Positions 23,974 to 28,793 of a stretch of DNA of 32,000 nt are shown one piece after another. Each line of letters begins with the position of its first letter. Position 1 is the first letter of the stretch. The DNA is from Candidatus Heimdallarchaeota archaeon B3_Heim (lineage in GTDB: Archaea; Asgardarchaeota; Heimdallarchaeia; Hodarchaeales; Hodarchaeaceae): contig NJBF01000033.1 in the NCBI GenBank assembly GCA_003144275.1, positions 1-32,000 of the forward strand, read 5' to 3'. The notes beneath the pieces are model-generated. The model was not told where the DNA came from. It did not search any database and was given only the letters and a program-made list of their open reading frames with translations. Position numbers and translations under genes: made by a program.

Positions 23974-24744
23974 CTAGTTAGTTTTCTTTTCAAGATAAGC
24001 TTTTAACTGTAAATAAAGATCCTCTAACGTACCTGAATCATCAATTGGAAACTGAGGGTTTTCGCGATCTAAATCTGTGGTAATGATCTTATCTGGGGCA
24101 GTATTTGTTTCGATGAAAAAAGTCTTGATCCCAAGCTTTCCAGCAACCATATCATTAATTCTATCATTACCAATCATTGCACATTCATCTGGAGATTTGT
24201 TGATTTTTTCCAGGACTTCCTCATAATACGTGAGATACGGTTTTGCAGTAGAATAAGCATCGGCAACGGTTATTTCTAGCCAGGGAATTATATCTAATCC
24301 AATTTTACCCCAATTAAGTCTCTTTTCTGTTGCAATTCTTGGGAACAGGGGATTAGTAGCGGCTACCACATGAAAATGTTGGGATACAAGATGAAGTAAG
24401 GGCTGAGCAAATGGAGCTGGTGAAATAATTTGGGCCAATTGATCAAATTGATAGGCATAAAAATGGAGGAATCGTTTTAAGATTTCTTCAAAAGGAAGAT
24501 TTAGTTTTGGACTAAAGTGAGCAGCAAATTTCTCAAGGTTTGTAAGTCCTTCAGGTTCCTTTTCTAACATTGCATGAGTCGAAGTTAAGAATAATTTCAT
24601 AAATTCTTCATAAGAAGATATCTCTTCGGTAAAATACGCATGAATATTCTTGCCATACATAGGAATGAACTCATTTTCATCAAACATGATCAAGGTATTG
24701 TCTAAATCGAATAAAAGTGTAGTAATTTCATTCCAGTTAATCAT
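23974..24744 (-). CDS. HAD-superfamily hydrolase
   Basis: LLFDLDNTL, ATNPLFP, AKP..YY, MIGND..ND. Confidence 0.88.
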   Translation of the reverse strand: MINWNEITTLLFDLDNTLIMFDENEFIPMYGKNIHAYFTEEISSYEEFMKLFLTSTHAMLEKEPEGLTNLEKFAAHFSPKLNLPFEEILKRFLHFYAYQFDQLAQIISPAPFAQPLLHLVSQHFHVVAATNPLFPRIATEKRLNWGKIGLDIIPWLEITVADAYSTAKPYLTYYEEVLEKINKSPDECAMIGNDRINDMVAGKLGIKTFFIETNTAPDKIITTDLDRENPQFPIDDSGTLEDLYLQLKAYLEKKTN

Positions 24745-24966: not shown

Positions 24967-26529
24967 ATGACAAGTCCAATGAGACCAGTTTCACGGAAGA
25001 AATCAAGCGCATTAAAGTTCACTGCTGAAAAAGTAAGAATATATCCAAAAAATACAGTAATTCTTTCACCAGAGACTGGTTTGTTTAAGGGGAGTTTCAA
25101 AAATCCGCAACTTCAATTAATATCCCCAACACAAACCGTCTTTACCGAGCATATCGTCATCTCTGACCATGTACCCGTCGATAAGATATGGATTTCAAAA
25201 CAGATGCTAAATGAATTAGATGCAGAGGACGGGGATATTATTCAAGTATTACCTCTAAGTCGCACACCACCCGATTCTTATTATTTAATCCGTAAACGAA
25301 TGATGCATAGAAGAGCATTCAAGGGTAATGAAATAGAACAAGTTGTTAATGATATTGCATATCACAGATTGAATCAATTAGAAAAAGCTGCTTTTGTACT
25401 TTCTCAAATCTTTGAACCGTTTAATATGGATGAGATTGAAGAATTAACAAAGGCTATGGCTCAAACAGGAGAGATGATAGATTTCGGCCAGCACACAGTC
25501 TTTGACAAACATTCTACTGGGGGTGTTCCCGGTAATAAGGTAACTCTTTTGATTGTGCCGATTATCGCCGCCTCTGGATTATTAATTCCCAAAACAAGTA
25601 GTCGAGCAATTACTAGCCCTTCAGGTACGGCAGATACTATGGAAGCACTGGGATGTGAGGTCATTTTTACCTCAGATGAACTAGTGGAAATTTCCCAAAG
25701 AACTAAAGGAATGATTGTATGGGGCGGAGGATTCAATCTTGCACCAGCTGATGATATTCTAATTAAAGATGTTGAATTTCCACTAGGAGTAAATCCCACT
25801 TCGATGATGCTTGCATCAATTATGTCTAAGAAGCTGGCCACTGGGATTCATTTTCTCGTGATGGACCTACCTACTGGACCCGGTACTAAAATCTCTGATA
25901 TAGGAACAGCCCAAGCTCTAGGTAGAGAATTTGCTGAGCTAGGAAGACGTCTAGAAATTAGAGTTGAAAGTGGAATTACTTTTGGAGCATCTCCAGTAGG
26001 TCATACTGTGGGAAGCGCTTTAGAAGCCCAAGAAGCTCTTCAGACATTAATAAATCCCAAAGAAGGCCCATCTAGTTTAGTAGAAAAGTCCTGCGAGTTG
26101 TCAGGGATATTACTAGAGATGGCTGGTAAAGCTCTTAGAGGGCAAGGTCGGGAACTGGCAAAACAAATCCTTTATAGTGGAAAAGCGATAGAAAAATTCC
26201 GAGAAATCATCGAAGCCCAATCAGCCAATCGAGATATGAAACCTGACGATATTGAAATTGGACAGTATTCTATTGAAATTCCTGCTCCTTCCTCTGGCTG
26301 GATAGTTCAAATTGATAATGTTAAAATTGCTGAAATTGCTCGAACCGCAGGTTGTCCCAAAGATAAAGGTGCCGGTATCGTCTTTTTAAAGAAGAAGGAT
26401 GCTGTTAAACGGGGTGAATCATTAATTCGGATTTATTCATCTTCTGAATCCCGTCTATCTGCCGCTGAAGGTAAATTTGCTAAGTTAAATCCTATTACTA
26501 TTGAAGGGATGCTCATAGGTCGAGTTTAG
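24967..26529 (+). CDS. AMP phosphorylase-like protein (thymidine/pyrimidine-nucleoside phosphorylase family), copy 1
   Basis: DKHSTGGVPGNK, PKTSSRAITS, GTAD, WGG..NLAPADD, ASIMSKK, GPSSLVEK, ARTAGCPKDKGAG, plus the archaeal N-terminal beta domain. Confidence 0.9.
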   Translation: MTSPMRPVSRKKSSALKFTAEKVRIYPKNTVILSPETGLFKGSFKNPQLQLISPTQTVFTEHIVISDHVPVDKIWISKQMLNELDAEDGDIIQVLPLSRTPPDSYYLIRKRMMHRRAFKGNEIEQVVNDIAYHRLNQLEKAAFVLSQIFEPFNMDEIEELTKAMAQTGEMIDFGQHTVFDKHSTGGVPGNKVTLLIVPIIAASGLLIPKTSSRAITSPSGTADTMEALGCEVIFTSDELVEISQRTKGMIVWGGGFNLAPADDILIKDVEFPLGVNPTSMMLASIMSKKLATGIHFLVMDLPTGPGTKISDIGTAQALGREFAELGRRLEIRVESGITFGASPVGHTVGSALEAQEALQTLINPKEGPSSLVEKSCELSGILLEMAGKALRGQGRELAKQILYSGKAIEKFREIIEAQSANRDMKPDDIEIGQYSIEIPAPSSGWIVQIDNVKIAEIARTAGCPKDKGAGIVFLKKKDAVKRGESLIRIYSSSESRLSAAEGKFAKLNPITIEGMLIGRV

Positions 26530-26533
26530 TCAA

Positions 26534-26557
26534 TTTATTTCTCTCTTCCCCTTTTTT
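26534..26557 (+). terminator. U-rich terminator-like tract after AMP phosphorylase copy 1
   Basis: TTTATTTCTCTCTTCCCCTTTTTT starting 5 nt after the stop. Confidence 0.5.
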
Positions 26558-26810
26558 ATTGGTTATTTTTGAGCGTGTTAATGAATTCTCTAGCTGAAAT
26601 TTCCCAAAAAGAAAGCTGTAAAAAAGGCCAGTGATTTAGTAAAACAATAAGTTAGTAAAGAGTATTCACAATAGATAATCAATTTAACGAGTCTTTCTCC
26701 ATTCAATAAGAGATATAGCTAAACTCATCACTCTAGAATCTCGGGGAAGATTTTGTATTCTAAGGGTGAGATTTTTCTCTTTATCCACTGTAGAACAGGA
26801 TGTACAATAT

Positions 26811-28319
26811 ATGAAATTAACACTTAAAGAAATACCTTTAGATTCACCATTCGCGCTTATTAATGAGCAAAATTTTCCTAAAGCAATTACTTATCCATGT
26901 CAATTACGAATCTCATTTGATAGCACTTATTTTCCTGTACAAGCTTATTTAACTAGTAAATATGTCGATAAAGGGGAGATTGGTTTGTCTGAATCTGTGA
27001 TCAAACGATATGGCTTGTTGGAAGGGACGGAAGTGGATGTTCAGACTAGACGAACATTTGATTCAGTTGCACATAGACTGATTATTGATAAAGTTAAAGG
27101 AAATATGCTCAATAAAGAAGACATGGATACAATTACAAAGGGGTTCATGAATGCGGAGATTTCTCCTTCCCATTCTTCTGCATTTTTATTGAGCCAGCAT
27201 TTCACAGAGTTCTCCTTGGATGAAATAGAAGCAATGGCCCGTTCTTTTGCCGATTCGGGAAAAATTCATGATTTTTCAGCTCCAGTCTTTGATAAACACA
27301 GCATTGGAGGTGTTCCAGGCAATAAAATTACGTTATTAATTGTACCCATCCTTGCTGCTGCTGGATTACTCATTCCCAAAACATCTACCTATGCTATCAC
27401 TTCTGCCAGTGGCACAGCAGATACAATGTCGGTTTTGGCACCTGTTGAGTTAAATGCTGATGAGGTTTTTGATCTAGTTAAAAAAACGAAGGGATGTATA
27501 GTATCTGGCCGTGATATGGGGATTGCGCCCGTTGTTGATAAAATTATCACAGAGGCTGCCTTTCCTTTGGGCATTGATCCTGAGTCCCTATTCCTTGCAG
27601 GAATATTAGCTAAAAAGCTTGCAATGGGAGTAGATTTTATGTGCTTGGATATTCCGGTTGGTACCGGCACTAAAGTTGATAATGAAGAAGATGGGCGTAC
27701 TTTAGCCCGTTTATTTGTTAGTTTAGCATCTAGACTTGGTATAAAAGCCGAAGCAGGATTAACCTATGCTAATGTCCCCGTTGGTCATAGTATAGGTCCT
27801 GCGTTAGAAGCTGCTGAGGCGTTAGATGCATTAGCTGGAAAAGGCCCTACTTCTTTAGTTGAAAAAAGCTGTGAATTAGCAGGGATTATTTTTGAGTTAG
27901 CAGGTATGACGGGTCGCGGTCTTGGCAAACCATTTGCTGCCGATATATTACACAGTGGAAAAGCTTTGAAAAAAATGCGTGAAATCATTGAAGGTCAGGG
28001 AGGAGATCCAAAAATATCCTCAGATGAAATTCGTGAAAAACTCGTTGGGAAACCTGTATTATCATATCAAGCACCTGGAGATGGGTGGCCTCATACTTGG
28101 AACAATTACGCTTTAAAAGAGATAGCTCGTGCAGCAGGGGCACCAGGGGATCGATTAGCAGGAATCCAAATTTTATCCAAAAAAGAATCCGTGCGCAAGG
28201 GTGAGGAAGTTTTTCGTGTCTACGCATCCTCAGACTCGGCTTTGGATGAGGTAAGAGGGCTTATTGCCAAATTACGTCCCGTTATCGTTGAGAGTGTCCT
28301 TTTGGAAAGAGTTGCCTAA
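26811..28319 (+). CDS. AMP phosphorylase-like protein, copy 2 (divergent active site)
   Basis: DKHSIGGVPGNK, PKTSTYAITS, GTAD, GIDP, AKKLA, VGHSIGPALEA, ARAAGAP; ATG 26811 (AGGA upstream) preferred over GTG 26766. Confidence 0.9.
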   Translation: MKLTLKEIPLDSPFALINEQNFPKAITYPCQLRISFDSTYFPVQAYLTSKYVDKGEIGLSESVIKRYGLLEGTEVDVQTRRTFDSVAHRLIIDKVKGNMLNKEDMDTITKGFMNAEISPSHSSAFLLSQHFTEFSLDEIEAMARSFADSGKIHDFSAPVFDKHSIGGVPGNKITLLIVPILAAAGLLIPKTSTYAITSASGTADTMSVLAPVELNADEVFDLVKKTKGCIVSGRDMGIAPVVDKIITEAAFPLGIDPESLFLAGILAKKLAMGVDFMCLDIPVGTGTKVDNEEDGRTLARLFVSLASRLGIKAEAGLTYANVPVGHSIGPALEAAEALDALAGKGPTSLVEKSCELAGIIFELAGMTGRGLGKPFAADILHSGKALKKMREIIEGQGGDPKISSDEIREKLVGKPVLSYQAPGDGWPHTWNNYALKEIARAAGAPGDRLAGIQILSKKESVRKGEEVFRVYASSDSALDEVRGLIAKLRPVIVESVLLERVA

Positions 28320-28391: not shown

Positions 28392-28793
28392 TTAAATCAT
28401 AGCTGCAAGCTTTTTTGCTGCACGTTTCATATCTAAAAGAATTAATCCCAATTTAGCGTTGGCACGGGCGATACCTACTAGAACAGCATGCTCTCCAGAA
28501 TCACGAATAATGACTATTCCATTGGATCCAGTGATAATCACCTGTTCCATTATCCCTCTCTCTAACTCAACAACCACTCTTTCCGATAGCGATAAGCTAG
28601 CTGCTGTCATGGCAGAGATACGATCTTCGTCGGTATTAGTATAGAGAGCACTCGCGATGGGTAATCCATCTCTGGTTACAACGGCAAGCCCTTCTAAATC
28701 TGGAATTCTGCTTTGAACATCTTTCAAAATTTGTTCAATTTGTGCCAACCTATCCATAATTTCTTGGTCATCATTCTCTAGCAATCGGTTCAC
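28392..28793 (-). CDS. Roadblock/LC7 domain protein
   Basis: EGLAVVTRDGLPIAS, DEDRISAMTAA, ELERG..EQVII.G..G, AKLGLILLDMKRAAKKL; start may be ATG 28757. Confidence 0.92.
   Translation of the reverse strand: MNRLLENDDQEIMDRLAQIEQILKDVQSRIPDLEGLAVVTRDGLPIASALYTNTDEDRISAMTAASLSLSERVVVELERGIMEQVIITGSNGIVIIRDSGEHAVLVGIARANAKLGLILLDMKRAAKKLAAMI

Follow-up and report, generated by a model that had tools for sequence, protein, structure and literature searches.

AMP phosphorylase carries out the first step of the archaeal pentose-bisphosphate (AMP to RuBisCO) route. Here we describe two neighbouring genes for proteins of this kind, copy 1 and copy 2, in a stretch of 32,000 nucleotides (positions 1 to 32,000 of contig NJBF01000033.1, hereafter the window) from the genome of Candidatus Heimdallarchaeota archaeon B3_Heim. 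The closest described system is the AMP phosphorylase of Thermococcus kodakarensis (DeoA, PDB 4GA4/4GA5/4GA6), which accepts all nucleoside monophosphates (NMPs) and deoxynucleoside monophosphates (dNMPs) and, by way of its N- and C-terminal parts, assembles into multimers with more than 40 subunits (PMC8376864). This combination of broad substrate use and polymerisation makes specialisation or mixed assembly conceivable for the two paralogs, and the initial annotation of the window had proposed an enzyme/pseudoenzyme pair or a split-specificity system. With moderate confidence we favour a different arrangement: the AMP (nucleoside-monophosphate) phosphorylases in a genus of Hodarchaeales (Heimdallarchaeia) form an old family of three paralogs, two of which lie in the window; copy 1 would be an active NMP phosphorylase and copy 2 an enzyme with the same chemistry and a different substrate preference, each transcribed separately.

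Both copies have the three-part architecture of the T. kodakarensis enzyme, align with it over the full length and share its HS-GGVPGNK, K-T-S, GTAD and SKK motifs; as in T. kodakarensis, the genome also carries a type III RuBisCO. Copy 1 differs from this enzyme by Asn in place of Asp256 and Phe in place of Arg251 with a one-residue insertion. In copy 2 Ser194-Arg195 is replaced by Thr-Tyr, Trp-Gly-Gly by Ser-Gly-Arg, Asp243 by Val and Ser264 by Gly. Bacterial pyrimidine nucleoside phosphorylase (PyNP) and thymidine phosphorylase (TP) (NP-II; 5OLN, 5EP8, 1BRW, 2J0F) have the fold and the phosphate-binding loop of the two copies, but possess neither the N-terminal domain nor the PGNK insertion, act on nucleosides and not on nucleotides, and contain a base-binding Arg (ALRD/ARD motif) that is missing from AMP phosphorylases. 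The two genes and the codons that distinguish them are arranged as follows.

24967 to 26529, forward strand: copy 1, Asn-type AMP phosphorylase (group A), 520 amino acids; reading frame open, TIGR03327 score 546.2 bits.
25792 to 25794, forward strand: codon AAT for Asn276 of copy 1, aligned to T. kodakarensis Asp256 (codon check, 4GA5 alignment).
26530 to 26810, forward strand: intergenic region, with runs of six and five T just past the copy 1 stop and AGGA ahead of the ATG at 26811.
26811 to 28319, forward strand: copy 2, divergent C-type AMP-phosphorylase-like protein, 502 amino acids from the ATG; TIGR03327 score 485.2 bits, member of a clade of about 58 sequences.
27390 to 27392, forward strand: codon TAT for Tyr of copy 2 at the Arg195 position (codon check).
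27600 to 27602, forward strand: codon GGA for Gly of copy 2 at the Ser264 position (codon check).

Besides the AAT, TAT and GGA codons, CGA for Arg213 of copy 1 at 25603 and GAT for the Asp of copy 2 at 27576 were exactly as first annotated. The motifs likewise agreed, reading SSRAITS, WGGG, APADD, FPLGVNP and ASIMSKK in copy 1 and STYAITS, SGRD, APVVD, FPLGIDP and AGILAKK in copy 2, with SLVEKSCEL common to both. The T. kodakarensis numbering used in the initial annotation (R195, D256, S264) fits the 4GA5 alignment, but FPLG had been described as replacing a usual ER motif, and the family consensus at this place is VE[YHRF]PL. Contigs from public DNA runs of four studies span both codons in question, and neither codon is among the differences listed; this agreement gives weak support to the codon calls. 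The reading frame of copy 2 is open from 26766 to 28319, which corresponds to 517 amino acids if the GTG at 26766 is used. The ATG at 26811, giving 502 amino acids, is most likely the true start, because the called orthologs have 502 amino acids and the AGGA lies about 10 nt upstream.

The claim that the window encodes two full-length AMP-phosphorylase paralogs was borne out. Copies 1 and 2, which are 49% identical across 383 amino acids, matched 4GA5 with E values of 1.6e-119 and 1.2e-104, respectively, and aligned with its residues 17/46 to 493/494, so that the N-terminal domain, the helical bundle, the alpha/beta domain and PYNP_C are present in both according to this alignment. Pfam assigned PF00591 and PF02885 to both copies, the latter below the gathering score in copy 1, and detected PF07831 in copy 1 but not in copy 2. 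The AMP-phosphorylase equivalog model TIGR03327 (NCBIfam) has a curated cut-off of 535 bits; on whole proteins copy 1 scored above it (546.2 bits), copy 2 below it (485.2 bits) and a third paralog of the same genome, copy 3, at the border (535.5 bits). All three copies carry the full set of core and phosphate-binding residues, namely the equivalents of Lys-His-Ser, Lys191, Ser193, Thr203, Lys268 and Lys288, and conservation of these residues is 95% or higher within each of the three clades. At the Asp256 position, presumably that of the proton donor, copy 1 has Asn276 and copies 2 and 3 have Asp. The segment Ser194-Ser199 together with Ser264, which we take to be nucleotide contacts in T. kodakarensis, is kept in copies 1 and 3 but altered in copy 2, where positions 194-195 are Thr-Tyr and position 264 is Gly. 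Full-text searches of the open literature found no passage on Asp256 of AMP phosphorylase. On these alignments both window genes belong to the AMP-phosphorylase branch of the NP-II phosphorylases. Save for the Asp-to-Asn change, which the data described below mark as a tolerated variant, copy 1 is a family member. Copy 2 should be filed as 'AMP-phosphorylase-like, specificity unknown', since it falls below the family cut-off and departs from the family in two of the presumed nucleotide-contact features.

Copy 3 is encoded on contig C54 of the same genome (94% complete). Its motifs read SSRAITS, WTGG, VPADE, YPLGIDP and ASVISKK, with the Arg, Asp and Ser all kept. The view that neither copy in the window is canonical left out this gene. 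In a homologue survey of 40 relatives, 31 of which had a homologue, 74 sequences were fetched, and three ortholog groups, A, B and C, could be followed across one GTDB genus (21 sampled relatives). Group A, to which copy 1 belongs, occurs in at least 17 genomes of the genus and always has Asn; group B (copy 3) always has Asp; and group C (copy 2) has the genus pattern ST-His-AITS, SG, APVVD, GIDP and AGILAKK. In at least 12 genomes the A gene is adjacent to the C gene. The ratio of nonsynonymous to synonymous substitution rates (dN/dS) against the nearest ortholog was 0.036 for A, 0.064 for C and 0.14 for B, which indicates strong purifying selection and that none of the three is decaying. Copy sets vary among closed and near-complete genomes, with A and C only in G009 and G011 and A and B only in G015. 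A reciprocal complementarity of two genes, as first suggested, does not agree with a third copy that has all the residues, nor with closed genomes that hold only copies 1 and 2 or only copies 1 and 3.

In the family tree copies 1, 2 and 3 fall into one clade of 153 sequences (support 99), which splits into the C clade with 58 and an N/D clade with 95 sequences. Within the N/D clade Asn is basal, and group B resembles a reversion to Asp. Free trees join A with B; the approximately unbiased test does not reject the clades of copies 1 and 2 as sisters (p 0.27). Under either branching order the duplication is placed before the origin of the genus. Hence, of the lineage-specific duplication proposed in the initial annotation, the lineage-restricted radiation stood, but a recent tandem event did not, as both clades span the genus and deeper lineages. 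The NCBI labels for members of this one GTDB genus read Heimdallarchaeota, Hodarchaeota, Hermodarchaeota, Promethearchaeota or Thorarchaeota, and because of this inconsistency the phylum-level labels of these metagenome-assembled genomes (MAGs) are unfit for claims on distribution. An occurrence of the A/C pair in Odin or Thor lineages would rest on such labels and is not claimed.

The Asn of copy 1 is invariant in 39 aligned clade members and in all orthologs of the genus. Across the family, 150 representatives (clusters at 50% identity) carried Asp at this site in 111 cases, Glu in 18 and Asn in 14, and the Asn state required at least 10 changes on a tree of 333 sequences. It is also the sole site that consistently separates N-type from D-type sequences. 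In the solved NP-II relatives the aligned segment is TVNSIP in Bacillus PyNP (5OLN, 5EP8) versus TVDSLP in human TP. Moreover, each of three genomes from a different Asgard family (G061, G051, G071; two are closed) encodes a single AMP phosphorylase, which is N-type, reads YSL[QE]INP and scores 651-658 bits. On this evidence Asn at 256 would be a naturally recurring variant within the family, one that does not abolish function; the occurrence of Asn in 14 of the 150 clusters and in sole-copy genomes indicates that Asp256 may be too strict as a family criterion. Within this family, a large insertion between SSRAITS and GTAD, in the active-site loop, was seen in three homologues of about 700-1000 amino acids (P0124, P0207, P0248); it ends in LHN directly before SGTAD and looks intein-like.

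The same three genomes encode ribose-1,5-bisphosphate (R15P) isomerase homologues scoring 405-415 bits, above the cut-off of 314 bits, directly beside a RuBisCO gene. By pathway logic, we infer that the Asn-type enzyme is a working AMP phosphorylase there. In the genome of the window the type III RuBisCO scored 538.7 bits (cut-off 497 bits), and type III RuBisCO is also kept in G009, G011 and G017, which have A and C and lack group B. Since the Asn is recurrent and conserved, is found in active Bacillus PyNPs and belongs to the sole AMP phosphorylase of genomes with pathway genes, copy 1 is very probably active and probably a normal enzyme. It would most likely release the base from an NMP with phosphate, and the product ribose-1,5-bisphosphate would pass to the isomerase and on to type III RuBisCO. 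Compared with the Asp-type copy of group B, the Asn may alter which bases are preferred. The proposal of a catalytically weak scaffold does not sit well with an Asn that recurs, is conserved and occurs in the sole AMP phosphorylase of genomes holding the rest of the pathway. As an observation apart, in G061 (C1:198233-201587), with equivalents in G051 and G071, two e2b2/R15P-isomerase genes and the RuBisCO gene form a compact cluster.

The C clade, with about 58 sequences, is distinct in the family tree. Across all three groups 43 positions are at least 95% conserved, among them (copy 1 numbering) K181, H182, G185, G186, K209, S211, T216, S217, G220, T221, D223, K288, K289 and K308. Against this background seven sites that canonical enzymes keep unchanged in 90% or more of cases are replaced in the C clade, namely (T. 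kodakarensis numbering) D111G, E121H/Q, S194T, W233S, G235R/E, D243V/I and S264G. The Gly at 264 is present in 57 of 57 C-clade sequences, a group whose membership was itself defined by this Gly together with Thr194; 147 of 152 family representatives have Ser. The substitutions first noted in the two copies are real and conserved, with the Asn invariant in its clade and the Gly clade-wide. The Tyr of copy 2 (Tyr209) is equally real but is a species-level variant and does not define the group: at position 195 deep members have Lys or Arg, members of the genus have His, and Tyr occurs only in the window and in its nearest, 99%-identical relative, G013.

The strict C-type DNA signature was found in 11 GTDB species representatives, all of this genus, although variants like the one in G063 escape it. 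Metagenomes and Heimdallarchaeota LC_3 contain deeper C-type genes, with identities of about 50%. When the C-type hidden Markov model (HMM) was run against 300 genomes of the phylum, the scores formed a continuum, and the top 39 matches outside the genus that were fetched were canonical Asp- or Asn-type, with G063 the sole exception.

The pattern in copy 2 fits an intact catalytic scaffold with a changed substrate pocket. The nucleotide pocket appears rebuilt (S194T, R195 to K/R/H/Y, W233S, G235R/E, D243V/I, S264G) on a kept core, and copy 2 is most likely a phosphorylase with the same chemistry and another substrate preference. Altered specificity is our best reading of copy 2, in line with the initial annotation, which had named it as a candidate for changed specificity; copy 2 is a good one. 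A non-catalytic role is possible.

Several points weigh against the reading we favour. If Asp256, which we take to be the proton donor although searches of the open literature did not confirm it, were strictly required, Asn would slow catalysis in copy 1. The best e2b2 homologues in the genome of the window score 204 and 189 bits, under the cut-off for R15P isomerase, and the RuBisCOs of G061, G051 and G071 reach 426-449 bits, so that the pathway argument drawn from these genomes rests on a RuBisCO that falls short of the type III cut-off and is unclassified. As to copy 2, three features are as compatible with a non-catalytic role as with a new specificity. Position 195 drifts from Lys/Arg through His to Tyr. 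One C-type subclade (G007, G002, G008, G009, G011, G016, G017, G001) has lost about 70 residues from its start, which make up most of the N-terminal domain, and in G007 (C48:11236-12630) the upstream remnant of this domain carries TGA and TAA stops. Another subclade has Ala at the Ser193 position.

Copies 1 and 2 are probably transcribed separately. Oligo-T is an archaeal terminator, and T-runs follow the copy 1 stop; in G013 two genes of the opposite strand, a TldD/PmbA metallopeptidase pair (L048:2295-5201), separate the orthologs, where the window has a gap of about 280 nt; and the pair in L098 is convergent. The deeper C-type genes share contigs with N-type genes; the two are adjacent in L098, while distances of 3 kb in LC_3 and over 6 kb in L101 separate them. 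A scan for gene conversion between copies 1 and 2 yielded no DNA tract, and a co-evolution scan of the A and C lineages gave no sign beyond one parallel substitution, T376C (the Cys of SLVEKSCEL), which is about the chance expectation. The synteny of A and C is conserved, but with separable genes, a single parallel change and no conversion tract we see no sign of an obligate two-subunit system.

An enzyme/pseudoenzyme pair, in which one copy, more plausibly copy 2, would be non-catalytic and would co-assemble into AMP-phosphorylase polymers and regulate them, appears quite unlikely. Such a role would agree with the loss of Ser264, Asp243, Trp233 and often the basic residue at 195 in the C clade, with the missing N-terminal domain in part of it, with the adjacency of A and C in at least 12 genomes and their linkage in deeper lineages, with the finding that in the genus C never occurs without A, and with the multimers of more than 40 subunits in T. 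kodakarensis (PMC8376864). However, copy 2 keeps the equivalents of Lys-His-Ser, Lys191, Thr203, Asp256, Lys268 and Lys288, the one parallel substitution is near chance, and the genes are separable, as the insertion in G013, the convergent pair in L098 and the 3 kb gap in LC_3 demonstrate. A pseudoenzyme is expected to have lost a residue indispensable in all active members; the Asn of copy 1 occurs in solved Bacillus PyNPs and in sole-copy enzymes, and the residues lost from copy 2 belong to the pocket, with the conserved core kept. For copy 1 a pseudoenzyme role is unlikely, considering also that Asn-type enzymes stand alone in genomes with the isomerase and a RuBisCO.

It is rather unlikely that the three paralogs are redundant isozymes performing the same broad NMP phosphorolysis, with near-neutral substitutions and differences in regulation, expression condition or stability. 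In its favour, specialisation need not be invoked, since the T. kodakarensis enzyme takes every NMP and dNMP (PMC8376864); Asp, Asn and Glu interchange frequently, and related genomes have A, B and C, A and C, or A and B. Against this stand the fixation of the Asn and Asp states, each within its own clade over long times, and the seven clade-wide replacements at otherwise invariant sites, which are unlikely to be neutral because dN/dS is about 0.05. A tentative possibility is that phosphorolysis is split by specificity: A (Asn) and B (Asp) would each take NMPs with different bases, such as 6-oxo in contrast to 6-amino, and the C-type protein would act on a non-canonical substrate (a modified or deoxy nucleotide or another 5-phosphoribosyl compound) or, alternatively, would be a non-catalytic modulator of the polymer. 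In NP-I purine nucleoside phosphorylases one Asp/Asn facing the purine (Asp204 in E. coli, Asn243 in human) sets the preference for 6-amino or 6-oxo purines. This switch belongs to an unrelated fold and serves by analogy only as a model for the coexistence of A and B.

Two conserved neighbours flank the pair.

23974 to 24744, reverse strand: HAD-family hydrolase (Pfam PF00702), divergent from copy 1, a conserved neighbour in the genus.
28392 to 28793, reverse strand: Roadblock/LC7 protein (PF03259) beside copy 2, a conserved neighbour of C-type genes.

In at least 10 loci a HAD hydrolase 47-94% identical to this one is encoded next to the copy 1 ortholog; the protein of the window gave weak, sub-threshold matches to pyrimidine 5'-nucleotidase families. 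Homologues of the Roadblock/LC7 protein lie beside distant C-type genes, at 70% identity in L101 (4080-4502) and 55% in L099 (5211-5636) and L100. Also in two distant MAGs, a tandem-SIS protein like 6-phospho-3-hexuloisomerase is encoded divergently from the C-type gene (L098:4574-5785 and L101:4546-5778, both on the reverse strand); its homologue in the genome of the window (C57:151826-152977) adjoins an OMP-decarboxylase/HUMPS-family gene, likely a hexulose-phosphate synthase. Directly before copy 3 on C54 (L004:1459-2778) is a gene for a protein of 439 amino acids with a CDC48_N-like N-terminal domain followed by a von Willebrand A domain, and the CDC48_N-like domain weakly matches the AMP-phosphorylase N-domain (E 8e-5).

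Altogether, as judged from sequence, a known enzyme family here has a variant that is well conserved and uncharacterised, in an order, the Hodarchaeales, that is among the closest known relatives of eukaryotes. The practical value of the finding is in annotation and enzymology, and the known picture of the pathway is unchanged. The 'catalytic Asp' is Asn in about one tenth of the family clusters, sole copies included, and annotation rules demanding Asp would wrongly call Asn-type enzymes dead. Genome surveys score AMP phosphorylase simply as present or absent, a practice on which the diversity of paralogs bears. The C-type proteins constitute a conserved, uncharacterised Hodarchaeales subfamily with an apparently rebuilt pocket, and offer a concrete target in the search for new nucleotide phosphorylase specificities.

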